64,000 nt of DNA from Candidatus Micrarchaeia archaeon (GCA_041500865.1 JBGQMY010000001.1:26827-90826), one strand, 5' to 3'. Shown: positions 4,828-64,000, counted from the stretch's first letter. Notes: generated by a model not told the origin, from the sequence alone. Numbers and translations are program-made.

Positions 4828-4870
4828 ATGGCAAACATTCACGATAACAGGGGATACCGTGGCGGCAGGC
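4828..4870 (+). repeat. 43-bp perfect direct repeat, copy 1 (duplicate of the nop5 5' end)
   Basis: ATGGCAAACATTCACGATAACAGGGGATACCGTGGCGGCAGGC is identical to 8928-8970. Confidence 0.95.
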
Positions 4871-5209
4871 GACAGCGGCAGGATTGCGAGGCTCCTGAGG
4901 CTCGGCGCCGACGTTTGGGCAAGGGACAATCTAGGCTTTACCGCACTCATGTGCGCCTCATTTGATGGGCACATCAGCATCTGCGCGCTGCTGCTTGAAA
5001 GGCTCGCGCAGGCAGGCGGGGACACAAGAAAGTATATCGAGACTGTGATAGAGGAAGGCATCCATAAGGGATGGGCTGCATTCACATATGCCGAATATAA
5101 TCACAGGAAGCCGGCCAAGTTTCTAAAGGCGGCTCCGTTGCTTGCCGAGTCGATGGGAAACGCGGATTTCGCCAAGTTCCTTTCAGGCTTCAGGGAATGC
5201 ATGGGCTGA
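4859..5209 (+). pseudogene. 5'-truncated ankyrin-repeat gene with FxxxFxxC tail
   Basis: Contains LLRLGADVWARDNLGFTALMCA and ends FLSGFRECMG. It begins mid-repeat at a GTG inside the nop5-derived repeat, whose ATG is out of frame. Confidence 0.7.
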
Positions 5210-5307
5210 TAATAGTCACAGAATCAAGATATGTTATAAAAATGTCAAAGAAGACGATATTTCTCAAATTTATATAGGTTACTTTTATAAATTATAATAA
5301 GTATTAA

Positions 5308-5667
5308 ATGGTCGGTGATTACATGGAAGATATAGAAGAAACTCCAGAGTCAATTACAGTTTCAGATTCTTATTCTTTTAAACTTTATCACGGAAGCAAA
5401 AAGAAATATTTACTAAAGGGAACAGGTAATGACAACGTTCAAAAAAGAATTTCAAGGAAACCATATGGTGCGCATGGTGCAATCCACCTAGTTATGGTAA
5501 AAGGAAAGTATGTTCATATCGATTGCAAAAACAAGGGATGCGGTAACAACTGGACAATGGAAAAAAATGGGAAGAATTATACTAACTTTTTTAGTGTGGA
5601 AAAAGAAGCATCTGGTATTGATTTGATTAAGTGCAAGAAATGTGGTGCTGAACACGAAAGTGGTTGA
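5308..5667 (+). CDS. AT-rich hypothetical protein with putative Zn ribbon
   Basis: CKNKGC...CKKC cysteine pairs, in a low-GC segment. Confidence 0.65.
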   Translation: MVGDYMEDIEETPESITVSDSYSFKLYHGSKKKYLLKGTGNDNVQKRISRKPYGAHGAIHLVMVKGKYVHIDCKNKGCGNNWTMEKNGKNYTNFFSVEKEASGIDLIKCKKCGAEHESG

Positions 5668-5701
5668 TCCGAGATAGAGTAATAATGCAGCGACAAAAGA
5701 T

Positions 5702-6145
5702 TCAATCTTTTATTTTATAAACTTCAAAACCTTCTGCCAAAGCAACTTCTTTTAGATACTTATCCGCTGATGCAAATATTAGTTCATTGTGATTTTTCTT
5801 AGCTTCCAAGGCGCAAGCCAATTGCATTGCATCGAAAGATTCTAATTTTGCGTATTTTTCCATAAGCTGAACGCTTTTTTCCAATATTTCCTTAGTTATC
5901 TTTACTGTATTAAAGGATCTATATTCAACTAAAAAAGCATTTATATCGTTATGCTTCTTCGTCAGATTTGTTATTATTTCGTATGGCAAAAGGGATGAAA
6001 TTATTACATTTTTAATGCCGCTGGATGCCTTTCCGTCAGATGATTCATTTAATATGGTCCAATATAAATTATTCATTTCGTTCGTACACTGCTCTTGCCT
6101 GAATATACCAAACAATGCGCTGGTGTCACAGAAATAGTACTTCAT
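5702..6145 (-). CDS. PIN-domain (VapC-like) nuclease
   Basis: Motifs YFCDTSAL, LPYEI, FDAMQLACA and FASADKYL. The start overlaps the RM gene stop (ATGA). Confidence 0.88.
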   Translation of the reverse strand: MKYYFCDTSALFGIFRQEQCTNEMNNLYWTILNESSDGKASSGIKNVIISSLLPYEIITNLTKKHNDINAFLVEYRSFNTVKITKEILEKSVQLMEKYAKLESFDAMQLACALEAKKNHNELIFASADKYLKEVALAEGFEVYKIKD

Positions 6146-8927: not shown

Positions 8928-8970
8928 ATGGCAAACATTCACGATAACAGGGGATACCGTGGCGGCAGGC
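8928..8970 (+). repeat. 43-bp perfect direct repeat, copy 2
   Basis: Identical to 4828-4870 and exactly 4100 bp downstream. Confidence 0.95.
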
Positions 8971-9821: not shown

Positions 9822-9823
9822 GG

Positions 9824-23028: not shown

Positions 23029-23823
23029 TTACCTAAGATATGACCCTATGGGAGACGAGACACAGCCCAGAAACTCTTCAACGAACGGCCTTATTGTGTT
23101 TTTATTGAGAACATTGCGCACCTCCTTTTTTTCAAGGAATGTGTTCAGGAAGTTTATCTTGGCTGAGCTGTATTCCCATCCTTGTTTGTGCGCTCTGCGG
23201 AATGCATCAAAAATAGATGTTCCAAGGCTTTCTTGGGAGCAGTCTGCGCCGTGGGATACGAGCATCGACACCATGGGCATCGACACATCAATTCTGCTGT
23301 TGCTTATTGCCCAAAGCAACGGACGGTCTCCAAGGTTGGGGTTTGCGCCGGCCTCAAGAAGGGCGCTGGCGTTGTCCAGGCAGCCATTTTGTACGGCTAA
23401 TGCAAGGGCCGTTTTTCCGGCACCGCACATTGCGTCCTTGTTTGCGCCGCATCCGATAAGGCACTTGACCACAAGCGTGTTTACTGACATGGAAGCGCTC
23501 ATCAGCGGCGTGATGCCATCTTCGATGCTCATATTTACATCCGCCCCGTGCCTAACCAGGAGCGCACATATGTCAGGAAGCGGCTTTTGAACAGCCCTTG
23601 CAAGCGGCGTTGCCCCATATTCATCCCTTGCGTTGGGGTCTGTGCCAGCCTCAAGGCACGCCCTTGCGCCTTCATAATCGTCATTCTTTATTGTTCTGAA
23701 CAGGCGGCTTGACTGTTCGGTTTTGAGGCTGTCAAGAATAAGCTCCCTTCCCCTGATTATGTCCTTCATTGGAACCGGGAGATTGGGGGTTTGCACTATG
23801 ACCCTAAACGACTTTTCTGCCAT
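23029..23823 (-). CDS. Ankyrin-repeat protein with FxxxFxxC tail
   Basis: GATPL, GITPLM and GKTAL repeats; tail FVEEFLGCVSSPIGSYLR. Start trimmed to MAEKSF. Confidence 0.9.
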   Translation of the reverse strand: MAEKSFRVIVQTPNLPVPMKDIIRGRELILDSLKTEQSSRLFRTIKNDDYEGARACLEAGTDPNARDEYGATPLARAVQKPLPDICALLVRHGADVNMSIEDGITPLMSASMSVNTLVVKCLIGCGANKDAMCGAGKTALALAVQNGCLDNASALLEAGANPNLGDRPLLWAISNSRIDVSMPMVSMLVSHGADCSQESLGTSIFDAFRRAHKQGWEYSSAKINFLNTFLEKKEVRNVLNKNTIRPFVEEFLGCVSSPIGSYLR

Positions 23824-43932: not shown

Positions 43933-44307
43933 ATGGCAAAAATGATTACTGCGGCCGAGGCAAGGCAGGTTATCATGACGCTGGAAGGCGCGGAAAGGTT
44001 CGCGCCGGCCTGGATAGCGTCCGGCTCAAGGAAGAACGTTTCCGGCTTCAGGGACGCATACCAGTTCCTGGCAAAAAGGTTCGCAAAATACCTGGAAGGC
44101 AGGTTCGGCGCGGAAAAGATGGAAAAGGAGGCGTTCTCCCGCCTTTTCACCAAATTCCTCATGCCATTCTGCTCGCCTGAGTTCATGGAAGGGCATGAAA
44201 AAAGCCAGTACAAGGCATGGAAGGCCATTGAAAGGATGCTTGACAGCTGCATGGACGGCATGGACCTGGCCTACGCCATAGGGAACGGCGAGTTCGTGGC
44301 GGCTTAG
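43933..44307 (+). CDS. Hypothetical protein in the AAA/VWA operon
   Basis: Abuts the ATPase stop and is followed by AGGAGG before the next gene. Confidence 0.72.
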   Translation: MAKMITAAEARQVIMTLEGAERFAPAWIASGSRKNVSGFRDAYQFLAKRFAKYLEGRFGAEKMEKEAFSRLFTKFLMPFCSPEFMEGHEKSQYKAWKAIERMLDSCMDGMDLAYAIGNGEFVAA

Positions 44308-44320
44308 GAGGCGGCTGACC

Positions 44321-47300
44321 ATGGCCCAATCCGCTTTTGACGTGATGAAAGAGGAGCCTACGCAGCGGAAGGGCGGCCCTCGCGAAAGAAAAAGGCTAAT
44401 GGAATCCTCAGGCCTTGGCACGGCGGGGATGGAAAAGGGTGTAAGGCTTTTCACCGACTATGGGGCATTCACGGATTTTGCTTCAAGATTCAATGGGGAC
44501 GTGGTGACGGCATACGAGGCCGCGAAGCAGGGCACGGTCGAGGAGGCAGGCAGGATAGCCGAAGACCTGTTTCCGACAAAGGGCAACAGGGCCACGTTCG
44601 GGAAAGCGGTGCGGAAATTCTGCGACGACTCGTTCTCAATGCTGTTCGCGATGGTGCTCATGGAAGGCCAGCTGGACAGGAATTACACGGCCCACGTGGA
44701 ATCCGCGCTTTCCCAAAGGGCGAAGAACCTGATGAGCTTCATAAGGGATTTTGAGGACATGAAGAGCCCGGAAAGGATGAGGGAAAGGGTGATTTCAACT
44801 ATTGGGACATTCAAGGACGAGTTTCCCTTTGCATTGATGCAGCAGCTTGACAAGTTCGAGGCAGGGGTAAGGAAAGGGGCTTATGACGACATGCTTGCGC
44901 AGATATCAAAGGCCTACATGGAGACCAGGATGGGGGAGCAAAAGGGGTTTGAGGCGTACTTTTTCATAAATTACAGGGAAAACGCGTTCTTTGACATCAT
45001 AACGCTTGCGATGGAGAACTCCGCCATGGGCATGATAAAGAAGGACGACATGCTGGCCATGTTCAGGCGCGAAAGCCCTGAGCAGGTATTCCTGTTTCCC
45101 TCGCTTTTCGTCCCCATATACGGGGCGGACGAGTTCATGAGGCTCAGAGCCGGCAAGGTCGTAGCGGACATTCCGATAGACGACGGCCTGAGAGCCGTGC
45201 TCTCGGAGCAGGAGATGTGGAAGGACATCCCGATAAGGCCGGCAGAGCAGGTAATACCGCCGCTGGGCAACGTCGCGCAGCTCATAAGGGATATGCCGTC
45301 CGCTAACGTGGACGCGGTCAGCAGGGCAGAGGCCAACACGCTGCCGCCGCAGGAGATGAAAAGCTTCATATTCAGGAGGATGGCCGAAAGGAAGATATCG
45401 CCAGTGCTTGACGTGGTCCCGTCAGGGTGCTCCATAGGCGAAAGGGACAGGATAAGGGCCAATGCCTCCACGAGGACCGTGCAGTACGGCGTAAACGACA
45501 CCTTCCCGGAAATGGACATGGGAATCGGCATAAGCATCATGTTCCACCACCTTTCCGACAGGATGAAATTCGTAAACAGGATGGAAAACGCCCTTGGCTA
45601 CACTGACGGCGCAGGCATATACCTGTTCCCGTATTACTCAAGGATGCCGACAAGGGACCTCAATGCGTACCTGCTGTTCAACGTGGGCAGGCACGAGTGG
45701 GGCCACATATCCATGGGCTCCTTTGAGTACACTGCCGGAAATGTGCCGAAGATAGACCTTTTCGCTCCGCTTGAAAGGGACGCCTCGTATGCCAAAAGGT
45801 ATGAAGAAAAGGGAAAGGAGAACATAGCGCAGCTGCAGGAATTCATCAATGGGATCATGCGCTCAGTGGACGCTGAGCTCAGCAAAAGGGAGAACGGCAA
45901 GGCAACGCTCAGGGAGATATACAAGACGATAGACGGCACAATCAAGTCGCACTACAAAAAAGAGGAGCACAGCAAAAACCCCTACATCAAGAGGTTCTAC
46001 GAGTATTTCGGGACAGAGCTGTACAGGCACATAGACAACGTGATAGACGACTACAGGATAGACAGGTCGTTCTATGACGGCAAGGGAAGGGACGAGATAC
46101 TGTATGAGATGGGCGTGGCTGAAACGGACAAGCTGAGGAAGATTTACAGGGTTTCAACGTATCTCAGGGCCATGAACAGGGCGGTATCTATGCATGAGCA
46201 GTTCAAGGAGGAGCCAAACAAGTCAAATGCCGTGGACACGCTTTTCCTGAGGACGATACTTGATGAAAAGTCTTTCAGCGAACTGGTTGGCCCAAGCGTG
46301 GACCCGCTGTTCAGGGACATTTGCGAGATAGCGATGTCAGAGGTGTACAAGGGGGCGGATACGCCAAGAAGGGTGAACGAGGTCATGTGCGCGTCAATGG
46401 AATTCATGGCGCTTGCGATGATTTTTGACGACGCCATAAAGCCGCCAAAGGTCGTAAGGCAGAAAAAGAAAGGTGAAGGCGGCGAGAAAGGTGGCGAAAA
46501 GGGGGAGAAGGGCGAGGGAGAACAGCAGGGCGGCACGCCAAAAGAGGACCTTGACAAGGAAAAGGGGGAGAAAGAAAAGGGCGGCAAGGGGGATAAGAAA
46601 GGGGACAAAGGAGATGAAGACGAAGGCCAGGGGGACAGCCTTATTGACAAAGACCAGGACGGAAACGTCAACATCAACAAGGATGACAAGAAGGTAGAAG
46701 GAAGGGAAAAGGAAGTTGAGAATTTAAATGCAGCGGAGAAGCACGGGTACGAGACAATTGAGGTCCGGGCTGAAAAGGTGGAGATGTTCAAGCAGTTCTT
46801 CCGCGACCTGAGGATAGACAGGATGGTCATCATAACGGAACTCGGCAAGAGGGGCGCAAGGGTTGACGTTGACGAGCTTGTGAAATTCATGTACAGGAAA
46901 GGCGCAAGGGAAGCGACGTTTTTGGAAAAGAAGGTCATGGAAACCGACGTCGGAAGCCACCTGGAGGCAAGGCCCATAGACATATACATAGGCGTTGACA
47001 CGAGCGGCAGCATGACCGGCGATTCCGGAAGGATGAAAAACTCCAAGAGGATATCGCTTGAGATGCTTGCAGGCTACAACGAGGTTGCGGCCGAGATGAG
47101 GTCCGCCAACATAAGGCTGCACCTGATATCCGTTGCCACGGAAGGCGACCATATCGCCATAAGGGACTGGGACGCCACAAAGGGCCTGATGGTGGAGAAG
47201 AAAGGCGACTTCTACTCTATTTCATACAAGTTCAGCGAGATAAACGGGGCCACGGACCTGCCGGCCATGATAACCCAGTTCCAGTCGTTCGTTGAGGAAA

Positions 47301-47698
47301 TAAAGAAGAACACGATAGGCGAGATAATCAGGGGCAGGAATGCGCTGAACCCTTCAGTGATGATAATGTACATAACGGATTTCGGGGACAACGCCGGTGA
47401 CCTGGAAGGCGTAGTTTCGGCCACAAGGCAATTCGGGACGTTTGCCAGAAAATACAGGGCAGATTCCAAGACTGTCAATTACATCTCCAACGACGCGGGC
47501 ATAGCCACGCTGTTCGTTGTCCCGGACGAGCACAGCGACAGCGACGACATAATGGGCGCGGTTGAAAGGGCGACAAGCGGGGCCGTTGTCAAGTTCACCG
47601 GCGAGAACGAGAGGGACGTTCTTGACAAGATGAACGCGCTCAGGCCCGTCCTTGAGGGGCTCAGGGCAAGCAACGTGGCTGAGAAGGCTGAAAAGTGA
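44321..47698 (+). CDS. Large protein with HExxH metallopeptidase-like domain, charged linker and C-terminal VWA domain
   Basis: RHEWGH and NVIDDYRID; a K/E/G/D-rich linker at about 46460-46640; MIDAS-like VDTSGSM...GATD...YITD. Confidence 0.82.
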   Translation: MAQSAFDVMKEEPTQRKGGPRERKRLMESSGLGTAGMEKGVRLFTDYGAFTDFASRFNGDVVTAYEAAKQGTVEEAGRIAEDLFPTKGNRATFGKAVRKFCDDSFSMLFAMVLMEGQLDRNYTAHVESALSQRAKNLMSFIRDFEDMKSPERMRERVISTIGTFKDEFPFALMQQLDKFEAGVRKGAYDDMLAQISKAYMETRMGEQKGFEAYFFINYRENAFFDIITLAMENSAMGMIKKDDMLAMFRRESPEQVFLFPSLFVPIYGADEFMRLRAGKVVADIPIDDGLRAVLSEQEMWKDIPIRPAEQVIPPLGNVAQLIRDMPSANVDAVSRAEANTLPPQEMKSFIFRRMAERKISPVLDVVPSGCSIGERDRIRANASTRTVQYGVNDTFPEMDMGIGISIMFHHLSDRMKFVNRMENALGYTDGAGIYLFPYYSRMPTRDLNAYLLFNVGRHEWGHISMGSFEYTAGNVPKIDLFAPLERDASYAKRYEEKGKENIAQLQEFINGIMRSVDAELSKRENGKATLREIYKTIDGTIKSHYKKEEHSKNPYIKRFYEYFGTELYRHIDNVIDDYRIDRSFYDGKGRDEILYEMGVAETDKLRKIYRVSTYLRAMNRAVSMHEQFKEEPNKSNAVDTLFLRTILDEKSFSELVGPSVDPLFRDICEIAMSEVYKGADTPRRVNEVMCASMEFMALAMIFDDAIKPPKVVRQKKKGEGGEKGGEKGEKGEGEQQGGTPKEDLDKEKGEKEKGGKGDKKGDKGDEDEGQGDSLIDKDQDGNVNINKDDKKVEGREKEVENLNAAEKHGYETIEVRAEKVEMFKQFFRDLRIDRMVIITELGKRGARVDVDELVKFMYRKGAREATFLEKKVMETDVGSHLEARPIDIYIGVDTSGSMTGDSGRMKNSKRISLEMLAGYNEVAAEMRSANIRLHLISVATEGDHIAIRDWDATKGLMVEKKGDFYSISYKFSEINGATDLPAMITQFQSFVEEIKKNTIGEIIRGRNALNPSVMIMYITDFGDNAGDLEGVVSATRQFGTFARKYRADSKTVNYISNDAGIATLFVVPDEHSDSDDIMGAVERATSGAVVKFTGENERDVLDKMNALRPVLEGLRASNVAEKAEK

Positions 47699-48291
47699 TG
47701 GCAACCAGGATACGGCAAGCCAACCAAGGGGGCGGCGGGACAGAGACTGTATTAAATCTTGCGAAGCCTGAGCCAGATAAAAATCCAAATGCTTTTGCAT
47801 CCAAGCCGGATACAGACAAAGAGGCGCTTTCGGCAGAGAATATGGATATTCTTACCGACGCGCTTATTTTTGAGATACGGCATGGCGGCATAAAAAACGT
47901 AAATTACAGGCTTAGTGAAGGAGCCGACCCGAACAGGACAGACAAGGAAGGCATCTTGCCGATGGCAGCGGCAGTTTGCGTAAATAAAATCAATGTATGC
48001 AGGCTGTTGCTGAAAAAAGGGGCGGATGTAGATGGCAAGGACAGGCGCGGCTGGACTGCGCTCATGTATGCCGCCTGGGCCAACAACGCGATGATGTGCA
48101 GGTTTTTGCTGGGCCATGGGGCAGACGCCCTGATAATGGACAAAGAGAAAAATTCAACATACGGCCTGCCGAATGAAAAGGAAACGAAGGCACTGTTGAA
48201 GATGTTTGCATGGAAAAGCAAGGCCCTGAAAAGCCTGCTCAGTGGCAGGATTGGGGCGTTCAAGGAGCATTTTGGGCTCTGCGTTTCTTGA
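47695..48291 (+). CDS. Ankyrin-repeat protein with FxxxFxxC tail
   Basis: GADPN and GWTALMYAA repeats; ends FKEHFGLCVS. Overlaps the VWA gene stop. Confidence 0.9.
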   Translation: MMATRIRQANQGGGGTETVLNLAKPEPDKNPNAFASKPDTDKEALSAENMDILTDALIFEIRHGGIKNVNYRLSEGADPNRTDKEGILPMAAAVCVNKINVCRLLLKKGADVDGKDRRGWTALMYAAWANNAMMCRFLLGHGADALIMDKEKNSTYGLPNEKETKALLKMFAWKSKALKSLLSGRIGAFKEHFGLCVS

Positions 48292-50633: not shown

Positions 50634-51194
50634 ATGGCGCAGGAAAGGCATAGGCTTGCTGCTAAGATTACCGAGCAAAAACGGCCCAAACTGGCAGGCA
50701 AGAAGCTGCCGGCAGACAAAGGCATTCAATACGAGAAGAAACAGAAGCGGCTCAACGGACAACTGCTTAAAGTTGCCGGAAAGGGAAATGCTGAAAAGGT
50801 GAAGCGCCTGCTGGAGCTTGGCGCAGACATAAATGCAAAAGACAGCGAGGGCTTTACAGCGCTCATGTTTGCCTTGAACGCGAGACATACCGATATCGCC
50901 ATGTTCCTGATAGGATTAGGGGCGGACGTGCATGGAAAGGAAAGAGGCATGACTCCCCTTATGATTGCCGCATCATACGGCTATATAGGCATTTGCGAGC
51001 TGCTGATTGGAAAAGGCGCGGATATCGGAGCAGAGGATCAGGCACGCCGGACTGCATATGACTGGGCAAAGATAAGGTTTGAGGAAGAAATGGTCGACTT
51101 CCTGATATATGCGAAGCGTTTGGTGAAAGTGACTGGCAAGGACGGCTTCAGGACATTCCTTTCGGATTTCAGGGCTTGCGCCGGAAGCGCCTAG
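50634..51194 (+). CDS. Ankyrin-repeat protein with FxxxFxxC tail
   Basis: GFTALMFA and GMTPLMIAA repeats; ends FLSDFRACAGSA. Start trimmed to MAQERH, downstream of the tRNA. Confidence 0.92.
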   Translation: MAQERHRLAAKITEQKRPKLAGKKLPADKGIQYEKKQKRLNGQLLKVAGKGNAEKVKRLLELGADINAKDSEGFTALMFALNARHTDIAMFLIGLGADVHGKERGMTPLMIAASYGYIGICELLIGKGADIGAEDQARRTAYDWAKIRFEEEMVDFLIYAKRLVKVTGKDGFRTFLSDFRACAGSA

Positions 51195-51233: not shown

Positions 51234-51995
51234 ATGAAGCTGGCCCGCAGAATAACCAACACTAAAAAGGTCGCTGGCAGCTTAATTTATAGAACAAATG
51301 TCCTTGACCAGGAAGCGTTAAACAAAAAGCTTTTTGAGACAATAGATAACTTTGGCGGAAGGCCTGAAGTCTCATACTGGATAATGCAGGGCGCAAACAT
51401 AGAGGCAAGGAACTCTAAAAAAGAGACACCGCTATTCATGGCAGTGTACCGCGGCGGGCCGGCAATAATAAATCTCCTGCTGGAATGCGGCGCAAATATA
51501 GACGCAAAGGACAAATGGGGCCGGACGCCGCTCATGAATGCAGTAATGCAATCAGACCGCGGCACAGAGGCATGGCTCCTTATAGAAAAGGGGGCGGATG
51601 TGCATGCAAAGGACAAAGGGGGCACGCCCGTCATTTGCTTTGCTGCGCTGTACGGAAGGAACCAAATTGTGTATGACCTCCTCAAAAAAGGCGCTGACAT
51701 AAACGCAACGGACAGGTGGGGCAAGACGCCGCTGATGATTGCAGTAAAGGAAAACAATCTCAAACTTATAGCGATGCTCATAGAGATGGGCGCGGACATA
51801 ACGATAATGGACAATGAAGGAATGACAGTGCTTGACCAAGCCAGAAGGCAGGAAAATGCCGAAAAATTCGGAACACTGCAGATAATATTCCTTGCAGGAT
51901 TCGGAAAAGAGACATTCACGGCATTCAGGAAAAGCTTCAGGGAATGCATCGTCAAGGAAAGGGGATACATTTCCGCATCCAGCTACCTTTTATAA
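51234..51995 (+). CDS. Ankyrin-repeat protein with FxxxFxxC tail
   Basis: ETPLF, GRTPLM and GKTPLM repeats; tail FRKSFRECIVK plus a short extension. Confidence 0.92.
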   Translation: MKLARRITNTKKVAGSLIYRTNVLDQEALNKKLFETIDNFGGRPEVSYWIMQGANIEARNSKKETPLFMAVYRGGPAIINLLLECGANIDAKDKWGRTPLMNAVMQSDRGTEAWLLIEKGADVHAKDKGGTPVICFAALYGRNQIVYDLLKKGADINATDRWGKTPLMIAVKENNLKLIAMLIEMGADITIMDNEGMTVLDQARRQENAEKFGTLQIIFLAGFGKETFTAFRKSFRECIVKERGYISASSYLL

Positions 51996-53142: not shown

Positions 53143-55632
53143 TCAGCCTTTCAGCTGCTTGAGCTTGCTCTCCAGCTCGCTTAGCGTCATCAGCATGACA
53201 TCGCCCGTGTCAATGTAGAACTTGAGCGTTGAGGAAAGCCTGCTGCCATCCGATATGGCATCAAGGAAGTCCCTCTTGGACGCATCGTCCTCGAAAACTA
53301 TGAAGACGAGGCCGTTCTTGACAAGGCCCCTGAAGTTGTCCTTTATGTACTTTATCTCCTTTGGTTCGTAGAAATAGACAAAGAACGAGTTCCACATGAG
53401 CTTGAGCTCCACATGGTATCCCTTGCTCCTGCCTATCTCGCTGAACGGGACGGTGTTCTCTATGCACATGTCCCTCAACGAGCGGAACATGGAAAGCTGC
53501 TTTATCGTGAAGCCGGAGTCCTTTTCCCACGACATAAGGCCATAGAAGTCGTTTTCCTCCTTGACGTCGCCCTCCTTCTTGAGTATGTCCATTATGTATT
53601 CTATGTTGAAGTCGCTCGCGTATATCCTGCTTCCCTTGTAGTATATGCTGGAAAGCTGCCTCTTTATGTCCTGTATTGAAACAGGCGTGTAATTCCACTT
53701 GTAGAACTCGTTTATGTCCTCGAAAAGCTTCAGGAACGTGTTCCTGCTGAGCGGTATCCTTATGGCCTCTATGGACGGGAAGTCCGGAACGTCTATGCCG
53801 AATACCAGCTCTTCCTTCCGTGTCAGGAATACCCCGGCAAAGTAAATCAGCAGCGAGACTATGCCCACGAGTATGTTTGTAGTGTTGAAGACCCTGCCGA
53901 GGCCCGTCGTGTCCGGCCTTGAGACGGTAATCACGGTCTTGAAGCTGCCGGCCTGGACCGTGAAGTTGTATTTTCCGACAGGCACCGCGCCGTTGAAATA
54001 GTCGGACATGGATACCTTGAAGTTGGTCCTCCTTCCGGTGAATGAGTAGGACCTGTTGCCGCATGAGGTGCACGTGACCGTTGCGCTCTCGACCTCCTGC
54101 GGCCTTCCCTGCGAGCTGAAATTGAAGACGAACGCGGCATCATTGAAGTTGGGAATTACCTTTACGTCAAGCCCGCCGAACTGGATGTACGTGCGCGCGT
54201 ACCTTTCGCTTCCGGACACGTCAAAGATGTAGGGCGCCGCGCCGAGTTCGTTCTTGACGTATTGGTAGTAAATTGGCGAGTTCAGGTTTGACTGGTCCAA
54301 ATGGACTTTGTCGTCTTCCGTTCCATTGGCCGCAATCACGGACATGCTCATCGTCGGGTCTGAGTCGGCCCCTACCGTGCCATCCGCTATAAGCTCAAGC
54401 CTGGAGCCCTGGCCCGAGATGGAATAGGCGAGAAGCTTTGGCGCCTCAGTGTCTTGCGCATACAGGCTTCCGGCATAATCCTTCAGCGCGGACCTTATGT
54501 CAAGCGTTGAAAACGAAACGTTTTTCGGGTTGTAGACGTCAAACCTGATAAGCTCGAACACGTGGCTTCCGAGCTTGAACATGTCCGAGCCAAAGTAGTG
54601 GCTTTTGCCAATCGCGGGGTTCGCCATGACTACGGGACCTGGCATGAAAGCCGCCCACTTGTCAAACGAGGACGCAACCTTGAAGGCGTCCATTGCGGCG
54701 CTCTTGCCGTCGTCCCATCCGTTGTCCAGCGAGTTCGGGATGAACACCATGTTCCAATTCGAGTTTTTTGGCGCTATTATGGACACCGCGTCGTAGACCT
54801 TCGTTGCGTCGCTGGCCACGTAGAGGGCATTTCTCATATTGAGCGCCTTTATCTGTATGTCAGTTTGCACCTGGAACGAGATTCCCAGGCTGTTCCAGAA
54901 CGGCATCAGGGGGGCCTGGTTCCCGTCCGGGTTGATTTTGAAATCCGGCATCACGCCGATGTACATGAACGTTATGTATTTCATCCTGTTCTGGCTGAAT
55001 TGCGAAACCAGCTCGTCCTGCGGATAGTCGTACGGCACCATGACCGTGGAGCCGTCAGGCACCCTTGACAGGTCAAGCCCGTTGACCACGACCGGATTGA
55101 GGCCCGAGGCGGTTGCGCTCTTGGAAAACTGGAAAACGAACTCGTCAAGCCTGGATTCGTTGCCGCCTGGCTGGATGCTTCTGGGCAGGACCAGGTAAAC
55201 GTCCTTGGACAGGGGCCTGTCCGTGACATACACGGTCAGCGCGGAGGTGGAATTCTCGGATGCTGAGAGGTTTATTACGTTGACAACGGCATTCTGCTTG
55301 TTTTCGTAGCTGCCATAGTCGGCATACTGGACGCCCTTTATGTCCATTGACCCGTAGGGCGGCACAGGCTGCACGTTCAGCAGCGCGCTTATCTGGGATG
55401 CGAAGGAGGATATGAACAGGATTATCCCAAAAAAGACCAGCAGCCCCACGAGGACTGGCACGTAATTCACGAAATTGATTGGCTTCTTCGGCGCCTCTTC
55501 CTCGCCCTTCCTTGCAACGCGCCTGCCGAATATGGACTCCCTAATTGCCTCAAGCAGGGGCTTTTCGACTCTCTTCAGCCTGTACTTGACCTCAAAGGGC
55601 TTGAGCAGCTGCAGCCTTACCTTGTCCTTCAT
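53143..55632 (-). CDS. Large two-TM membrane protein with beta-rich extracytoplasmic region
   Basis: TM segments near residues 55-80 and 585-605 flank an Asn/Ser/Thr-rich region. Last gene of the VirB4-like operon. Confidence 0.8.
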   Translation of the reverse strand: MKDKVRLQLLKPFEVKYRLKRVEKPLLEAIRESIFGRRVARKGEEEAPKKPINFVNYVPVLVGLLVFFGIILFISSFASQISALLNVQPVPPYGSMDIKGVQYADYGSYENKQNAVVNVINLSASENSTSALTVYVTDRPLSKDVYLVLPRSIQPGGNESRLDEFVFQFSKSATASGLNPVVVNGLDLSRVPDGSTVMVPYDYPQDELVSQFSQNRMKYITFMYIGVMPDFKINPDGNQAPLMPFWNSLGISFQVQTDIQIKALNMRNALYVASDATKVYDAVSIIAPKNSNWNMVFIPNSLDNGWDDGKSAAMDAFKVASSFDKWAAFMPGPVVMANPAIGKSHYFGSDMFKLGSHVFELIRFDVYNPKNVSFSTLDIRSALKDYAGSLYAQDTEAPKLLAYSISGQGSRLELIADGTVGADSDPTMSMSVIAANGTEDDKVHLDQSNLNSPIYYQYVKNELGAAPYIFDVSGSERYARTYIQFGGLDVKVIPNFNDAAFVFNFSSQGRPQEVESATVTCTSCGNRSYSFTGRRTNFKVSMSDYFNGAVPVGKYNFTVQAGSFKTVITVSRPDTTGLGRVFNTTNILVGIVSLLIYFAGVFLTRKEELVFGIDVPDFPSIEAIRIPLSRNTFLKLFEDINEFYKWNYTPVSIQDIKRQLSSIYYKGSRIYASDFNIEYIMDILKKEGDVKEENDFYGLMSWEKDSGFTIKQLSMFRSLRDMCIENTVPFSEIGRSKGYHVELKLMWNSFFVYFYEPKEIKYIKDNFRGLVKNGLVFIVFEDDASKRDFLDAISDGSRLSSTLKFYIDTGDVMLMTLSELESKLKQLKG

Positions 55633-55644
55633 CCGCGTTCATCC

Positions 55645-56343
55645 TCAGATTGGCTTGACGTAGTCATTCGATATCATGTCCTGCACGACGTTCATGACCC
55701 TTTGCTCGGCTATCTCGTAACGCTCCGAAAATGCCCCTATGTCAAGCTCGCCGCCATGGTCCTTGAGCCATTCAGATATCTTGAGCTGCAGCACCTCGTC
55801 GCTGAACTTCATGAACTTCTCCAGCTTCGCCTCGGTCGAGGAAAGCCTGTTGCCGACTGTGTAGAGCTTCTTGGTCATCTCCTCGTTCTCGTGCTTGTAG
55901 TTGTTCAGCAGCGCCGTGGTCTCGTTGAGCTTGCTCTTGAGCTTGTCCCTTTCGATGTAAACGTCCTTGGAGCCTGCCGGTATCATGGATTCCATGTCTT
56001 TCACGAGATTGCCGATAAGCTCCAGCATCACGCCGATGTCCATGTCGTAGTAGGGTATGGCCATGTTCAGCAGCGGGAAGGCCTTGTTGAGGACCTCCCA
56101 TTTCCTGACCGCCTCTATCTTGTCCGACATGGTATAGCCTATGTCGATGCTCTGGTCCCTGAAGTCTATTATGAAGAATTCCTGCGGGGCGCCCCTTATG
56201 TCCTTTGACTCGACGTATGCGAGCGACACCGCATCCTTGGTCTTGACCAGCATGGCCTTCTCGCCGACCGCGGCGAGCGCATCGTAAACGTCCTTTGTCT
56301 TGCCCTTCATGGACGCAGCTATCTTCATGTATCCTGCCCTCAT
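55645..56343 (-). CDS. Hypothetical protein with coiled coil and possible C-terminal wHTH
   Basis: Coiled coil ERDKLKSKLNETTALLNNYKHENEEM; overlaps the upstream stop by 4 nt. Confidence 0.75.
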   Translation of the reverse strand: MRAGYMKIAASMKGKTKDVYDALAAVGEKAMLVKTKDAVSLAYVESKDIRGAPQEFFIIDFRDQSIDIGYTMSDKIEAVRKWEVLNKAFPLLNMAIPYYDMDIGVMLELIGNLVKDMESMIPAGSKDVYIERDKLKSKLNETTALLNNYKHENEEMTKKLYTVGNRLSSTEAKLEKFMKFSDEVLQLKISEWLKDHGGELDIGAFSERYEIAEQRVMNVVQDMISNDYVKPI

Positions 56344-56810
56344 TTTTTACCACCACGCTTTGCCGGCTTTTGCGGGACAGGGTCCGGCGCCGCAGGCTGC
56401 GGCGCAGGCTGCTGCGCACCCAAAGCAGGCTTGTCCTCTATCGCCGGGACGTATATGAAAATCAGGAAAAGCGGGACCAGCAGTATCAAAAGGACGCCCA
56501 ACAGGAGCGACCTGAGGATATCCGCAACGTCCCCGTTCATTAAGTTAACGACGAATATTATGACAAAGAAGACCGCGGCCAGCGCGGCAAGTATGATTAC
56601 GTTGCGCTCGAAGCCCTTCCTCTTCTTCATGTACTCCTCCTTGTGCTTTTCGCACACGAAGAGCCTGTTGTTCTTCAGCCTCATGCCAAGCCGCTTCTTG
56701 GCCGCCTTCATGAGGTTTATGACCCTGTCCTCCTTCACCTTGTAGCCGTCCTGCGCAACCTCGTGGCCGATTATGCATATGTCGGAGTTCTCCGGGACTT
56801 CGTCGGTCAT
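56340..56810 (-). CDS. Small two-TM membrane protein with possible Zn-binding N-terminus
   Basis: CIIGHE...CEKH, two hydrophobic helices and a Pro-rich tail. Confidence 0.75.
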   Translation of the reverse strand: MTDEVPENSDICIIGHEVAQDGYKVKEDRVINLMKAAKKRLGMRLKNNRLFVCEKHKEEYMKKRKGFERNVIILAALAAVFFVIIFVVNLMNGDVADILRSLLLGVLLILLVPLFLIFIYVPAIEDKPALGAQQPAPQPAAPDPVPQKPAKRGGKK

Positions 56811-58390
56811 TTGCCCTCATCCTCCAGAACCACCTGCGAAAGCGACGACGTCGTTTTTCCCTCCTTCCTGAAGTCCGCTTTCGTGAATATGTTGATTATT
56901 ATGGTGTCGTCTATGCCAAGCTCCTTGAGGAACGTGCTCATTATCCTCCTGTTGACGCCCATCCTCTCGAGCGTTATTACGAACGTTATCACGTCCACGT
57001 GCCTGTTGCTCTTCTCAAACAGGTTCACGACGTCGTCAATCTTCTGCTCGTCGACGCCTATGGACCTGAGCTTGCCCCTTATGTCCTCCTTCCGTATTGA
57101 AATCGTATATGCCATTGCACCACCCTTCGCCTTTTTCTCCATTACCTCCCTGAGGTCAATGAAATACTCCTTGAGGGGCTCCTCGCCCGCTATCTTGCCG
57201 ATTATGAACGTCATGGGGAAGCTTTCCGGAGTGTAGAACGCCATGTTCACCGCGGCCTGCCCCACGCCGAATTCCCTTATCCTCGTCCTTATGTAGTTGC
57301 TGAAGTTGAGCGTGCCCTGCAGGTAGTCAAGGTACTTCTCGAACTTCACCTTGAGTATGAACGTGGTTCCGACGTTGCTGAAGATGACCTCGCTGATGTC
57401 CGTCGGGTTTTGGCTCGCTATTATGAGCGCGAAGTTGTACTTACGGCCTTCGCGGACAATCATGACCGCGTCGCTGTTCGGGTCGCTGGATATCTTCCAT
57501 GCCTCGTCGAGGACGGTAATGAGCTTGAGACCCTTGGTCGCGGACCATCCCTCCAGCCTCATCCTTTCCTTGATGAACTGCAAAATCGTCAAACCGCCCA
57601 GCGCCCTCATGGTCTCGTCCGGCAGCCCGCTCAGGTCTATGTCCACAAGGCCTGCCGAAGTCAGGCTTGCAAGGTCAACCGTGCTCTTGTTGGCGAAAAA
57701 ATCCTCGCCGGGCTTTGTGAACCTCTTCAGCCTGTATACGCAGTTGTCAAGTTCCGCGGGGAACTCGTACGTCCCGAGCTGGGACTTCTCCTCAAGTATG
57801 GCGACTACGTCTTTCAGCGTAGGGGCCTCAAGCGGCCTCCCGAGCTCGTCCTTCTGCTCGGTGCTGTCCATCTTGAACTTCGCCTTCATGTAGGCCTGCT
57901 CAATCGCCTCCTCTGTAAGCCTTTTCTGCTCCGGATAATTTTCCATGTCAGTAAGCAGCGCGAGCGTCCTCATGACCTGCTTTATCCTGTCATAGGGCTT
58001 CATGCCGCCCAGGTCCAGAAGGTTGAGGTAGTTGGCCCTCCCAAGCTGGATTATCTTGCCGCCGGTCTGCATGACCCAGTCCTTGTATTCCCCTGCCCAG
58101 TCTATGATGATGGCGTTGGAGTTCCACACGAAGCTGGCCCTGACGAGCAGGGACTTGATGAAGTACGATTTTCCGCTTCCTGAAATCCCGACTATTGCTA
58201 TGTGCGGGTTAGTGATGATGTTATAGTCCCAGAAGAAGGGCACGTTCAGCCCGTCCGTCTTTCCCACGTAAAGGGAATTGAGCGGGTCCCTGAACAGTAT
58301 GTGCATGGGCGGCTCCGGAGCATGCGTAAGGATGTTCCGCCTTGAAAGCTCGGTGTTGTTTATGCGGAACATCGTCAGCTGGGTCGCCAT
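56807..58390 (-). CDS. VirB4/HerA/FtsK-superfamily ATPase
   Basis: Motifs NPHIAIVGISGSGKS, IIIDWAGEY, TVLDEAW and REGRKYNFALIIASQNP. Confidence 0.88.
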   Translation of the reverse strand: MATQLTMFRINNTELSRRNILTHAPEPPMHILFRDPLNSLYVGKTDGLNVPFFWDYNIITNPHIAIVGISGSGKSYFIKSLLVRASFVWNSNAIIIDWAGEYKDWVMQTGGKIIQLGRANYLNLLDLGGMKPYDRIKQVMRTLALLTDMENYPEQKRLTEEAIEQAYMKAKFKMDSTEQKDELGRPLEAPTLKDVVAILEEKSQLGTYEFPAELDNCVYRLKRFTKPGEDFFANKSTVDLASLTSAGLVDIDLSGLPDETMRALGGLTILQFIKERMRLEGWSATKGLKLITVLDEAWKISSDPNSDAVMIVREGRKYNFALIIASQNPTDISEVIFSNVGTTFILKVKFEKYLDYLQGTLNFSNYIRTRIREFGVGQAAVNMAFYTPESFPMTFIIGKIAGEEPLKEYFIDLREVMEKKAKGGAMAYTISIRKEDIRGKLRSIGVDEQKIDDVVNLFEKSNRHVDVITFVITLERMGVNRRIMSTFLKELGIDDTIIINIFTKADFRKEGKTTSSLSQVVLEDEGK

Positions 58391-58399
58391 GGCCGCACC

Positions 58400-59236
58400 T
58401 CACATGTTGCCTGTCTTCTCGGACTCCGTCTGGTCCTCAAGCTCCTCTATCGTCGTAGGCAGGAATTTCTCCCACTCAAACGCCTTGAGCATCTCGTCTC
58501 CGGTAAGGATGTCGGATTCGCAGTTGAACGAATTGGAAAGGAGCGTGCCAAGCTTGTCAGCCGCGTTCTTCACCCTGGCTATGGCCTCGTCCTTGGTTAT
58601 CCCCGTGTCGGTGACCATCGCATAAAGCACGACCTTCATGGGCCTGAGGCCCTTGCTGAGCTGGTTCACCATGCCCTCGAAGTAAGCAATCTGCCTCTCG
58701 AACTGGTTTATCCTAAGCACGTCGGGCTCGCTTTTCTCCCTCTCTTTCTGGAGCTTGAGCTGTGCCTCGGCCTTCTGCGTCTCAAGCTTCTTCCTGTCGT
58801 TGGAGATGTCCACTGCGTGCATCGTGTACGAGATTTTGACGACTTTTTTGAACTGCGTCATGGCCATCTCGAACTGCTTGTTGTACGATATCATTTCGCC
58901 TTCCTCCTTCTCAAGCGCGGACTGGTATATCTTCATGCCGATGAATGCGGAAGCGTAGTAGACGCCGTTCTGCGCCCTCTTTACGATGACGTCTTGGGCC
59001 GGCGGAATCTCATATCCCGTATCCGTAATGACTACCGTCTTTGTCCTTTGGGTTATCATGGGCACCACGAGGTAGCCCATCTTTATGAATATTGCCGCGC
59101 CTATCGCGCCCAGGCCTGCCAGTGCGCCCCCTATGAATGAGAATATGCCGCCCCCGGTCGCTATAGAGGCAAAAAGCCCAACGACGCCGACGCCGATTGA
59201 TGCAAGCGCAAGGTTCTTGTTCGAGACTTCTACCAT
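58400..59236 (-). CDS. Membrane-anchored coiled-coil protein, first gene of the VirB4-like operon
   Basis: Two Gly-rich TM helices followed by an alpha/beta region with a coiled coil; GAGGTG ribosome-binding site before the ATPase. Confidence 0.78.
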   Translation of the reverse strand: MVEVSNKNLALASIGVGVVGLFASIATGGGIFSFIGGALAGLGAIGAAIFIKMGYLVVPMITQRTKTVVITDTGYEIPPAQDVIVKRAQNGVYYASAFIGMKIYQSALEKEEGEMISYNKQFEMAMTQFKKVVKISYTMHAVDISNDRKKLETQKAEAQLKLQKEREKSEPDVLRINQFERQIAYFEGMVNQLSKGLRPMKVVLYAMVTDTGITKDEAIARVKNAADKLGTLLSNSFNCESDILTGDEMLKAFEWEKFLPTTIEELEDQTESEKTGNM

Positions 59237-61404: not shown

Positions 61405-61437
61405 GCTCAGGCCCCCTTTGGCCTTGCGTTTGCCTTT

Positions 61438-62565
61438 TCACACCATTCCCAGAAGAGAGGCTATTTCATGGGCTATCCCCAAAAGGAACATTAGGATTAT
61501 CAGGATGCTCAATGGATATATGAAGCCCACGGTGAATTCCGGCTTCCTGTCGCTCTTTTCCCTTGCTTTCCAAAGGATAAGGACAATCAGGATGCCGTCA
61601 ATGCCGCCTGTGAGGCTCCCTGCAATGCTGAGCGGGGCGATAAAGTCGCGGAAACCAAGGGTGAAAATGATTAATGGGACCCCTAGCGCAAGAACAAGGC
61701 TTTTTGCATTGCTGAATTTCAGGTCATAATGGTACATCTCCTTCAGCGCCAGGCCCAGGATGATGAACGACGTTGCCATATTGAAGACTGCGAAAAGGCC
61801 GGTCAGCACGACCATCCCGGGCCCAAGGGCCTTGCCCAAGCCTATGCTTGCCACCTCCGTCGTCCCTGCGCCGCCCACAAGAACCGCGCTCAAGCCAAAC
61901 AGGAGATAAACCGCGATGGGTATCAATGTTCCGAGGATCACTGCCTTTTTCATTTCCTTGTAGTTATAGACAAGCTCCTGCCTCATCTCGGGGATTGCGG
62001 AGGTTCCTATGAACGCGAACAGTATGACGCCGTAAGGCAGGAAAATGTCCCCGTCCCCTATTGAGAAATTGCCAGGGTTGATATTCATGAAATTGACTGC
62101 GATGATGAAAAAGACCAGGACCAGCAGGACTGCCACGGAGATGAGCTCCGTGCCCTTGACAAAATCCAGCCCCCTGAATATTATGAATGACCCCAATGCA
62201 AAAAATAGGATGCCATACCAGAAGATGTCCCCTCCGAAAATGGAGCCCAATGCGCTCCCTCCCCCTATGAGATATGCGAGCAAGGCCCCGTAGACCCCTA
62301 TGACCATTGAGAATGCCATTAATCCCTTGCCGGCATTTCCAAGGTATTTGGCGGCATAGCCGGTAAGCTGGTGGTTCCCCCTTGTCCTCAGGACTATCTC
62401 GGCCAGGAACAGGTTGACAAAAAGCATGAGAAAGCCTATTACCAGGATATGGAGCATTCCGACGACTAATCCTGATTTGGAGATGACATACGGAATCCCC
62501 ATTATGCCGGCCCCAATCGTGATTCCTATGAGGGTGGCTATCGCCTCAAGCACTGGCCTTTTCAT
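61438..62565 (-). CDS. Amino-acid permease (aromatic amino-acid transporter-like)
   Basis: GITIGAGIMGIP and PYGVILFAF, about 11 TM segments. Confidence 0.85.
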   Translation of the reverse strand: MKRPVLEAIATLIGITIGAGIMGIPYVISKSGLVVGMLHILVIGFLMLFVNLFLAEIVLRTRGNHQLTGYAAKYLGNAGKGLMAFSMVIGVYGALLAYLIGGGSALGSIFGGDIFWYGILFFALGSFIIFRGLDFVKGTELISVAVLLVLVFFIIAVNFMNINPGNFSIGDGDIFLPYGVILFAFIGTSAIPEMRQELVYNYKEMKKAVILGTLIPIAVYLLFGLSAVLVGGAGTTEVASIGLGKALGPGMVVLTGLFAVFNMATSFIILGLALKEMYHYDLKFSNAKSLVLALGVPLIIFTLGFRDFIAPLSIAGSLTGGIDGILIVLILWKAREKSDRKPEFTVGFIYPLSILIILMFLLGIAHEIASLLGMV

Positions 62566-62603
62566 GATTGAATCTCCCTTTGAAGCGTACTATTTTTCCT
62601 TTT

Positions 62604-63782
62604 TTAGGCCCTCTTGTATATATGGACCACTGAGGTCGCGCCGCTTCCGCCGACGTTCTGGCTAAGGCCGTATGTTAAGTCTTTTACTTGCCTCTTGCCT
62701 GCGTCTCCTCTCAGCTGCATGCTTATCTCAACAGCCTGCTTTATGCCCGTTGCACCGACAGGATGGCCTGCTGCCTTTAATCCGCCACTGCTGTTTATGA
62801 CCAGGTCTCCGCCGAACGTGGTCTTGCCTGCTGCTGCGGCCTTTGCGCCCTCGCCTGGCTTGAAGAACCCAAGGTCCTCTGTTGCGATGACTTCTGCAAT
62901 CGTGAAGCAGTCGTGGACCTCTGCAAGCTGGATGTCCTTTGGCGAAACGCCTGCCTCCTTGTATGCCAATCTTGAGGCGACTTTCGTCGCGTTTATGCTT
63001 GTCAGCGATTCCCTGTCAGCCAAGCCTATCGTGTCTGATGCCTGTTCCGAGGCGACTATCTCTATCGGCTTCTTTGTGTAGCTTTCGGCCATGTCCAATG
63101 GGCATAAAATGAGGTTTGCGGCCCCGTCCGTTATCGGCGATGCGTCAAAAACCTTTATCGGCGATGCGACGACCTTTGACTTCATGACTGTCTCAATCGT
63201 TATCTCGTTCTGGTACTGGGCGTATGGGTTCATGCTGCCGTGCCTGTGGTTCTTGACCGCGACCGCAGCAAAGTCCTCCTCTTTTGCCCCGTACTCCATC
63301 ATGTATTTCCTCATCATCAGCGCGTACAATGAAGGGAATGTCGCGCCCATGAAAAGCTCCCATTCCTGGTCCCCTGCGCCGCCCAGTATTTCCGTGACGT
63401 CGGCAGTTGAAAGGTCTGTCATCTTTTCAACCCCGCCGACAACGACGATGTCGTGTATGCCTGATGCAACGGATATGAAGCCCTGCCTGAGCGCAAGCCC
63501 GCCGGATGCGCATGCGCCCTCAACCCTTGTGATGGGTATCGGAAGCAGGCCCATATAATCTGCAAGAAGCGCGCCAAGGTGCTCCTGGCCCGCGAAGTTG
63601 CCTCCTGCCATGTTTCCTACATATCCTGCGTCAATCTGCTCGCCGCGGATGCCTGCGTCTGCCACTGCCTTCAGCCCGGCCTCCAGAGCAAGGTCCCTGA
63701 GGCCCTGCTCCCAGTGCTCGCCGAATTTGGTGATGCCGACACCTATGATGGCTACCTTCCTATGGGCTTTCATGATGCACAT
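62604..63782 (-). CDS. Archaeal-type thiolase (acetyl-CoA acetyltransferase)
   Basis: Motifs VEGACASG, VGGVEKM, EVHDCF, SGGLKAAGHPVGATG and NVGGSG. The start is probably 63773. Confidence 0.92.
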   Translation of the reverse strand: MCIMKAHRKVAIIGVGITKFGEHWEQGLRDLALEAGLKAVADAGIRGEQIDAGYVGNMAGGNFAGQEHLGALLADYMGLLPIPITRVEGACASGGLALRQGFISVASGIHDIVVVGGVEKMTDLSTADVTEILGGAGDQEWELFMGATFPSLYALMMRKYMMEYGAKEEDFAAVAVKNHRHGSMNPYAQYQNEITIETVMKSKVVASPIKVFDASPITDGAANLILCPLDMAESYTKKPIEIVASEQASDTIGLADRESLTSINATKVASRLAYKEAGVSPKDIQLAEVHDCFTIAEVIATEDLGFFKPGEGAKAAAAGKTTFGGDLVINSSGGLKAAGHPVGATGIKQAVEISMQLRGDAGKRQVKDLTYGLSQNVGGSGATSVVHIYKRA

Positions 63783-63823
63783 TGTCGGACGTCTTGTTTT
63801 TAAATGTTTTTCAAGCGATTACG

Positions 63824-64000
63824 TCAGGCGGCGATGCAGTCGCTGAAGGTTTTCATGAACCTGTTTCCGGTCATGCCAGCAAGCCATTCCATGGACCTGA
63901 GGAATGCGGCCGTTTTCTTTTTGTTGCCCTTTTCGGCGATTGAGGACGCAGTCATGCCCTTCCAATCCCCTTTTCCAGCCTTCGCGTTTACGTCTGCTCC
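63824..64000 (-). CDS. 3' end of an ankyrin-repeat protein with FxxxFxxC tail (5' end outside window; not in the ORF track)
   Basis: Manual translation gives GADVNAKAGKGDWKGMTASSIAEKGNKKKTAAFLRSMEWLAGMTGNRFMKTFSDCIAA*. Confidence 0.88.
   Translation of the reverse strand, partial: GADVNAKAGKGDWKGMTASSIAEKGNKKKTAAFLRSMEWLAGMTGNRFMKTFSDCIAA

Follow-up and report, generated by a model that had tools for sequence, protein, structure and literature searches.

Most ankyrin proteins of a Micrarchaeia genome share a C-terminal cysteine tail predicted to dock on the first protein of an AAA+/vWA/zincin operon

How DPANN symbionts with 1-Mb genomes control their hosts or fight viruses is an open question. 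We analysed a stretch of 64,000 nucleotides (the window) from a Candidatus Micrarchaeia archaeon (GCA_041500865.1 JBGQMY010000001.1:26827-90826), in which twelve of thirteen ankyrin-repeat genes end in the same short motif, F-x3-F-x2-C. What is this tail for? An initial annotation had proposed a docking, lipidation or export signal that ties a repertoire of interchangeable binders to one common machine. Our results support the shared docking signal and the common machine: the predicted partner is P178, a protein of 178 amino acids (aa) encoded by the first gene of an AAA+/vWA operon in the window. We believe there is a somewhat better than even chance that the tail is an F-box-like plug which loads interchangeable target receptors, through P178, onto one ATP-driven machine for remodelling or proteolysis.

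A six-frame scan of the window for F-x3-F-x2-C found all twelve tails that had been quoted, in frame and at the C-termini of ankyrin open reading frames (ORFs). The positions given with them, however, were gene starts or ends and not motif sites; the first Phe of the twelve tails lies at 5177, 23085, 24784, 25470, 26166, 26733, 27279, 39212, 48259, 51156, 51924 and 63859. The thirteenth gene is tail-less, as claimed. Pfam ankyrin models matched all nine of the window genes that we scanned (9/9). The ankyrin genes are:

4859-5209, plus strand: 5'-truncated ankyrin gene with tail (motif 5177-5200).
23029-23823, minus strand: ankyrin gene with tail (motif 23062-23085), 10 residues beyond the Cys.
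23884-24819, plus strand: ankyrin gene with tail (motif 24784-24807).
25435-26124, minus strand: ankyrin gene with tail (motif 25447-25470), at the end of an abutting four-gene array.
26125-26691, minus strand: ankyrin gene with tail (motif 26143-26166; F176, F180, C183), modelled alone and with P178.
26692-27240, minus strand: ankyrin gene with tail (motif 26710-26733).
27241-27900, minus strand: ankyrin gene with tail (motif 27256-27279).
28002-28595, plus strand: ankyrin gene without tail, terminating at an ordinary cap.
39177-39950, minus strand: ankyrin gene with tail (motif 39189-39212).
47698-48291, plus strand: ankyrin gene with tail (motif 48259-48282), its start overlapping the stop codon of the vWA gene.
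50634-51194, plus strand: ankyrin gene with tail (motif 51156-51179).
51234-51995, plus strand: ankyrin gene with tail (motif 51924-51947), 15 residues beyond the Cys.
63824-64000, minus strand: 3' part of a tailed ankyrin gene (motif 63836-63859) that the end of the contig truncates.

The genome that holds the window (G000; 1,043,478 bases, 92% complete) has 123 ankyrin ORFs or fragments, identified by ankyrin similarity, with four of them added through a profile of the tail. The family makes up 116 of the 1068 called genes and 6.4% of the bases, and its genes sit in 75 clusters of 1-8 genes each. A hydrophobic-x3-hydrophobic-x2-C pattern stands near the C-terminus of 98 of the 123, and the strict two-Phe form falls within the last 30 aa of 92, against a mean of 0.8 and a maximum of 6 in 1000 shuffles. 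Three of the 25 ORFs without a tail leave their contigs, several have a tail in the next frame, and about half stop at an ordinary cap.

The initial annotation called both Phe and the Cys invariant. This is nearly true, but genome-wide it is too strong, as the second Phe is present in 93 of the 98 tails; the Gly said to sit often at seven residues before the first Phe is there in about half (50/98). When we searched with a profile that had no Cys column, the Cys was retained in 94 of 96 tails, and one exception is a split pseudogene. Conservation of F, F and C (0.99, 0.95 and 1.0 in these motif-selected genes) equals that of the best repeat-core positions. The paralogues are old, with a mean pairwise identity of 33% in the body and 30% in the tail. 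Synonymous codons of the tail match the genome usage of G000, so the constraint acts on the protein, and we could rule out a DNA-level cassette or recombination site as the origin of the tail because these codons vary as they do genome-wide. Tail identity and body identity correlate weakly (r 0.31), with a few discordant pairs of the kind that tail swapping might leave. An ankyrin-repeat tree needed 17 changes of tail state versus 14-19 in shuffles, which with 75 columns is uninformative. We also rejected a diversity-generating retroelement as the diversifier of the ankyrins, since the sole repeat pair near a reverse transcriptase falls in a non-ankyrin gene.

Each protein is laid out as a basic unstructured leader, an ankyrin stack that is most variable at its binding-face positions, and the constant tail after the cap. 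The most variable repeat columns are 3, 5, 10, 13 and 14 (3.5-4.0 bits), which we take to be the positions randomised in designed ankyrin repeat proteins (DARPins). In 91 of 92 tailed genes there is no non-ankyrin stretch of at least 110 aa, so the tailed proteins supply no catalytic domain themselves, and we read them as receptors that would borrow the activity of a machine through P178. Two G000 genes are tailed but have little beyond one ankyrin repeat, and a gene of the related genome G002 (L082:631-900) is leader and tail alone, with all ankyrin repeats deleted. Two large ankyrin fusions with extra domains in G001 (L071:383-3034 and L073:217-2493) are tail-less; one of them has a methyltransferase domain.

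The length of the tail bears on lipidation. Two residues follow the Cys in 21 of the 98 tails, three in 59, four or five in 15 and more in 3. A CaaX-like signal, used by a prenyltransferase of the archaeon or of a eukaryotic host to anchor ankyrins to membranes, would fit the 59 tails with exactly three residues, the first of which is aliphatic. The CaaX rule, however, puts the Cys four from the end and an aliphatic residue at a2; the other 39 tails have a different length, and the second position is A, G or S in 51 of the 59. The prenyltransferase family PF00432 is unmatched in the 92% complete G000, DHHC was not found there, and neither was a TLC nucleotide transporter, which is typical of intracellular life. 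In the genome G008 of another genus, which has its own Cys-bearing tail (see below), the chain runs on for 10-17 residues after the Cys. The net charge of the G000 tail is about zero, unlike membrane-targeting helices, which are typically basic. This part of the initial proposal is weak, and we regard a lipid anchor as very improbable.

Is the tail simply the last capping helix? An AlphaFold2 model of the ankyrin at 26125-26691 (confidence as pLDDT, 89.6) shows the ankyrin stack with its last helix lengthened (152-168), followed by a Gly turn and a tail helix (170-186), and the tail hairpin is predicted at pLDDT 93-96 without a partner. Residues 37-162 superpose on complete DARPins (Z 21.8, root mean square deviation (rmsd) 1.2, 128 aligned), and the tail helix stays unaligned in the best 50 structural matches, which include five longer DARPins with a further repeat. 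In a PDB search with the tail profile, ankyrin similarity was limited to positions 1-13. Tail-less paralogues stop at the cap, whose outer position is K, R or E in 29 of 37 readable cases. The model thus presents the tail as an appendage beyond a complete ankyrin cap and not as the cap itself. The view that it lies outside described domains held up: 62 tails had no Pfam match at E up to 1, including F-box, PRANC and SOCS box, and the tail had no PDB match.

Such an appendage could have spread by gene duplication as a structural element that stabilises the last repeat, with its link to the operon a historical accident. That the hairpin is well predicted without a partner fits this, as do the limits of the tail to one genus and the small number of independent contrasts described below. 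Against it, the cap is complete without the tail, old paralogues have kept the Cys, the motif is also on non-ankyrin proteins, the linker varies in whole turns (14 or 18 residues in most), and there is a specific docking model. We consider this explanation improbable.

Strong matches to the tail profile occur in 3 of the 176 genomes of the order, all in the genus that we label g1 (G000, G001 and G002), and there are four lone weak matches elsewhere. In G001 and G002 the tail is on 39 of 57 complete ankyrin ORFs, counted over loci picked by ankyrin or tail matches. A search of 1.84 billion representative proteins found 127. In 125 of them the chain closes with the motif, its Cys followed by 2-5 residues, and these are without exception ankyrins or short fragments of the ankyrin-tail family; the remaining two are generic ankyrins. 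Nine of 11 close-tail loci are in records of Candidatus Micrarchaeia or Micrarchaeota, and two are bacterial (E 8e-5 and 2e-4). Carriers other than ankyrins, for which the initial annotation had suggested looking, do exist: the strict motif ends 2 of 928 non-ankyrin G000 genes versus 0.08 expected. One carrier (330 aa, no Pfam match) keeps the motif in 4/4 homologues, and it was not found in G001, G002, G008 or G014. The non-ankyrin carriers at G000 C13:5155-5736 and C13:15918-16817 (L347) are helical proteins, both with short I-A-x-x-T-x-S repeats by eye; phmmer gives no link between them.

We found no description of the tail, the ankyrin expansion or the operon in the literature searched, which covers neither subscription journals nor supplements, and supplements may list these proteins. 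According to a 2014 survey, two or more ankyrin proteins occur in only 4 archaeal species among 133 strains (PMC3932732). Within this order, ankyrin expansions are a recurring feature: 9 of 176 genomes, from five genera, have at least 30 first-look Ank_2 candidates.

If the tail is a plug, what does it plug into? The operon was found blind: all 928 non-ankyrin G000 genes were compared against two genomes, G008 and G005, the latter with 1 ankyrin ORF. The subtraction yielded 42 listed genes that are shared with G008 and missing or far weaker in G005. Among them are genes for 876-aa and 1125-aa proteins, which belong to a four-gene operon in the window at 40759-47698 whose last stop codon overlaps a tailed ankyrin gene:

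40598-40621, plus strand: orphan tail-like motif (profile E 0.7) that lies shortly before the operon in a small reading frame, probably what is left of a decayed ankyrin gene.
40759-41295, plus strand: P178, 178-aa all-helical adaptor and predicted tail receptor; N-terminal G-P-C (Cys5), interface residues 3-16 and 38-60.
41302-43932, plus strand: 876-aa tandem AAA+ ATPase, each module with its Walker A motif and Walker B acidic residue.
43933-44307, plus strand: 124-aa small helical protein, with a positional counterpart in all operon copies read.
44321-47698, plus strand: 1125-aa zincin-vWA protein, with an N-terminal HEXXH, a charged linker and a C-terminal vWA.

The 1125-aa protein has a zincin motif (H458, E459, H462; N573, D577, D581) and an intact MIDAS (D893, S895, S897, T978, D1020), and the HEXXH and MIDAS residues are invariant in 14/14 sequences. 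A vWA domain with an intact MIDAS and a charged linker beside an AAA+ ATPase is one mark of a MoxR-vWA pair; another is that the ATPase belongs to the MoxR/dynein-midasin clade, with a helix-2 insert and an arginine finger. In database searches VWA_2 matched weakly in the G008 orthologue and the vWA-protein profile had no PDB match below E 0.25; AAA_5 was above its cut-off in the G020 orthologue and weak in two others, and the ATPase profile had only Walker A-level matches in the PDB. R383 and R758 of the ATPase are invariant. The vWA protein is found in 9 of the 176 genomes and the ATPase in 8, and the zincin-vWA profile gave weak partial matches over the zincin region in 8 further genomes. 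An ankyrin gene adjoins the vWA gene in G000, G001 (where they are convergent), G020 and G030, and not in G002. More than half of the operon's sequence words also occur in two further runs, both sediment metagenomes, and none of the matches listed is an RNA dataset.

The P178 gene has GGTG upstream of its ATG, and the protein (model pLDDT 85.9) has a single N-terminal Cys. Neither P178 nor the 124-aa protein has a Pfam, NCBIfam or PADLOC match above cut-off, and P178 has no viral match; its best fold match (Z 7.3, rmsd 3.0, 81 aligned, to an AAA lid-like region of ATAD2) is not above background. The disordered C-terminus of P178 has a conserved V-[LF]-Y motif, with Y174 invariant in 9/9, which may be a docking peptide for the ATPase or the MIDAS. 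By eye, its N-terminal C-E-K-A-A-x-x-L-V resembles the post-Cys half of the G008 tail, C-[DN]-K-x-A-x-x-L-V (L126:13580-14125).

We modelled residues 1-168 of P178 with residues 70-188 of the 26125-26691 ankyrin, both given as alignments. The complex scored 0.79, compared with 0.01 for the best of 3 controls. In a calibration the score mark was reached by 116/157 solved and 2/215 mismatched pairs, although these counts are only rough with the alignments used here. At least 94% of contacts recur between runs, and the partners have a pLDDT of at least 88. The interface is limited to the ankyrin hairpin (residues 156-186) and its most certain pair is Cys5-Cys183; F180 is predicted to touch A8, F41, F48 and L49, and F176 to touch A8, E11 and L12. 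The ankyrin binding face is left free in the model, and we found no similar complex among solved structures. We think that the tail quite likely docks on P178, whether the tailed proteins are receptors or exported.

In the mechanism we propose, the tail would fold into a helical hairpin and place its two Phe in a hydrophobic groove of P178, with its Cys beside the Cys of P178. This pair may make a disulfide or share a metal, because the Cys is never Ala or Ser in intact genes and because both partners keep or lose their Cys together across lineages. By analogy with MoxR-vWA biochemistry, P178 would associate with both the AAA+ ring and the vWA protein, whose MIDAS would grip a peptide; ATP hydrolysis would pull, and the zincin may cut the captured target. 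Known MoxR-vWA pairs are described as capturing a peptide in the MIDAS and remodelling it by ATP hydrolysis (PMC7159879). The targets would be foreign or host proteins, and the machine would act in the symbiont, as defence, or in the host if all parts are exported.

Do cysteines on the two sides go together elsewhere? G008 (genus g7) has 31 ankyrin ORFs, 17 of which end in L-x3-L-x2-C-[DN]-K plus further helix. In genus g6 (G011 and G016) the neighbours of the operon are paralogous HEAT-like proteins (25 and 22 matches; Pfam HEAT_2 in one), which in G016 form arrays on both operon flanks. Their tail is L-x-N-P-F...L-C-[LS]; all 12 of 12 aligned end in ...L-C-[LS], and 7 further divergent members end in Cys. 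Except for two matches at E about 1e-3 this tail is restricted to the two genomes. The operon is present in all three genera that have a Cys-tail family, namely g1 (3/3 genomes), g7 and g6, and a Cys is found among the first ten residues encoded by the first operon gene in 7/7 (G000, G001, G002, G008, G014, G011 and G016). In G020 the first operon gene encodes 409 aa and zero Cys, and among the 16 ankyrins of G020 and G030 there is no common Cys tail; a Cys near the C-terminus occurs in 3, in no shared pattern. Operon-less, ankyrin-rich genomes (n=5) had a helix-Cys tail on 0/37 complete ankyrin ORFs in the best 30 loci, and operon-less G005 has no Cys-tail family. On an RpoB tree of 24 genomes, a single clade of g1, g6 and g7 is rejected (p-AU 0.0055), and the tails need 3 changes and the operon 5.

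These genomes also bear on a different role for the Cys, in which it binds the catalytic zinc of the HEXXH site (a cysteine switch) or the tail is a peptidase cleavage signal, and the P178 contact is secondary. The invariant HEXXH agrees with this, and PMC7159879 describes MoxR-vWA systems in which a coupled zincin liberates a conserved C-terminal peptide. The peptidase motif is, however, equally intact in G020 and G030, where the ankyrins have no Cys tail, and it is the first-gene Cys, by contrast, that varies with the tails. We give this role little credence.

Some tails outside the pattern were seen along the way. In operon-less G143 (L288, L293, L298 and L316), 5 of 6 ankyrins read continue beyond the cap with a common basic stretch of about 100 aa that has no Cys, another lineage-specific tail. 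Weak matches to the G008 tail in G170, G085, G199, G179 and G244 were inspected and are not repeat families. One of them, in G085 (L043:1342-1713), is an internal segment (E 4.8e-5) of a 124-aa helical ORF beside release factor eRF1, and is probably chance.

Several points weigh against the plug-and-adaptor reading. The independent contrasts are too few (2 for, 0 opposite, 2 no difference; p 0.5), and the three tails are not detectably homologous by hhalign. The g6 HEAT-like family was found by looking beside the operon, hence it is not an independent test, and the first genes of G011 and G016 are counterparts by position only: a first-gene profile search missed G011, and G016 is absent among the matches listed. 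G014 has the operon and the Cys, and none of the three tails was found in this 84% complete genome; its sister G007 has neither. Ankyrins have expanded without the operon in 3 of the 9 ankyrin-richest genomes. The docking is a model of 1 of 98 tails, and the putative link from P178 to the AAA+ and vWA proteins rests on gene order. A cytoplasmic disulfide is not the default in a sediment anaerobe. Finally, 45% of the ankyrins have a basic N-terminal leader versus 12% of conserved genes, which suits export at least equally.

Export is the alternative that we take most seriously, although we still think it unlikely. The tail would be an export tag and P178 a secretion chaperone that captures tailed proteins, while the AAA+/vWA machine unfolds them, processes them or passes them to a translocon, and the ankyrins act as lone host effectors. 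The predicted docking would be identical, and the ankyrins have basic leaders and no signal peptides. There are precedents in LvgA, which captures a C-terminal FxxxLxxxK helix (PMC7251119), and in Mia40, which captures a Cys-ended helix (PMC2806287); in bacteria, PMC3932732 reports that ankyrin abundance tracks symbiosis. The window also has a five-gene operon with a VirB4/CedB-like ATPase at 53143-59236, but this is conserved in tail-less G005 as well as in G008. The carriers are binder scaffolds only, with no enzyme bearing the tail, the subtraction gave no translocon-like gene set, and basic leaders are also on tail-less ankyrins of other genomes.

Returning to the plug and adaptor, we put forward only tentatively a wider picture of SCF-like targeting without ubiquitin in DPANN archaea. 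Up to about 100 repeat receptors, reinvented on ankyrin or HEAT-like scaffolds in at least three genera, would be latched Cys to Cys to the adaptor of one tandem-AAA+/vWA/zincin machine, which would remodel or destroy chosen proteins of viruses or of the host, perhaps within host cells.

F-box/Skp1 and SOCS-box (BC-box)/Elongin C are the receptor libraries of Cullin-RING ligases, and they include ASB and poxvirus ANK-PRANC proteins. As in these libraries, there are many dispersed genes with rapid birth and death, each a variable repeat binder with a short constant terminal helical module; by our model this module fits into a single small helical adaptor that would serve one machine. The differences are that there is no sequence match, RING and E2 regular expressions have 0 matches in G000, P178 has no significant fold match (no Skp1 or Elongin C-type fold is listed), a Cys-Cys contact is predicted, and the output is AAA+/vWA/zincin instead of ubiquitin.

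The MoxR-vWA ternary conflict systems (VMAP, iSTAND, FtsH, beta-propeller), as PMC7159879 presents them, likewise have an AAA+ protein beside a MIDAS-type vWA protein with further components; they too have variable repeat domains, and some are coupled to a zincin. Unlike them, our operon has two AAA modules per chain, the zincin is N-terminal in the vWA protein, there is no VMAP, iSTAND, FtsH or propeller gene, and the vWA is terminal in 8/8 copies read with no effector domain after it. Its variability is in about 100 unlinked genes, and the host lineage is a reduced symbiont. Single-AAA MoxR and zincin-vWA pairs (CobS/CobT-like, NorQ/NorD-like) are likely the ancestral type. In G164 the one weak match read is such a pair, an AAA_5 gene adjoining an HEXXH-vWA gene. 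These pairs differ in having no tandem AAA and no P178 in the sample searched, and ankyrin-rich G143, which has such a match, has no Cys tail.

Mia40 recognises the signal X[Ar]XX[Hy][Hy]XXC, known as MISS/ITS (PMC2806287). Like the tail this is an amphipathic helix with an aromatic residue at -7 and a hydrophobic one at -3 from the docking Cys, and a hydrophobic cleft guides it onto an N-terminal P-C cysteine, much as predicted for P178. However, the -4 position, reported there as critical in Tim10, is mostly small or acidic in the tail (S in 45/98), so that the g1 tails depart from the consensus. P178 has G-P-C with one N-terminal Cys and not CPC, there is no fold match, and the substrates have no twin-Cys motifs. 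Legionella LvgA (PMC7251119) also pairs a C-terminal F-x3-hydrophobic helix with a small adaptor tied to an ATPase, but its motif has no Cys, its carriers are diverse enzymes and its ATPase is a type IV coupling protein. On sequence and models, we would place the system in none of the F-box/SOCS-box, Mia40, LvgA or MoxR-vWA ternary classes, and it appears to be new as a system.

With the plug constant and both adaptor and machine named, the reading can be tested directly on two small soluble proteins and two cysteines. If the plug-and-adaptor reading is true, this would be a prokaryotic counterpart of the Cullin-RING receptor libraries whose latch relies on a new chemistry. The ligands of the ankyrins would then point to the host or to viruses that infect it, and DARPin-like binders could readily be attached to an unfoldase or protease by means of the plug-adaptor pair.

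Two other features were seen in G000. In the window, an exact 43-bp direct repeat (4828-4870 and 8928-8970) is the first 43 bases of a Nop5-family gene, copied before the truncated ankyrin gene. The 4-kb stretch between the repeats holds the ankyrin 3' part, a 119-aa ORF, a 147-aa gene and an 899-aa gene, and looks like an island inserted into the 5' end of the Nop5-family gene. Elsewhere in the genome, C11:21395-32391 and C35 hold seven tandem and two further paralogous proteins of about 525 aa. Most share a conserved terminal motif whose Cys lies three from the end, and they make up a second Cys-ended family without sequence relation to the first.

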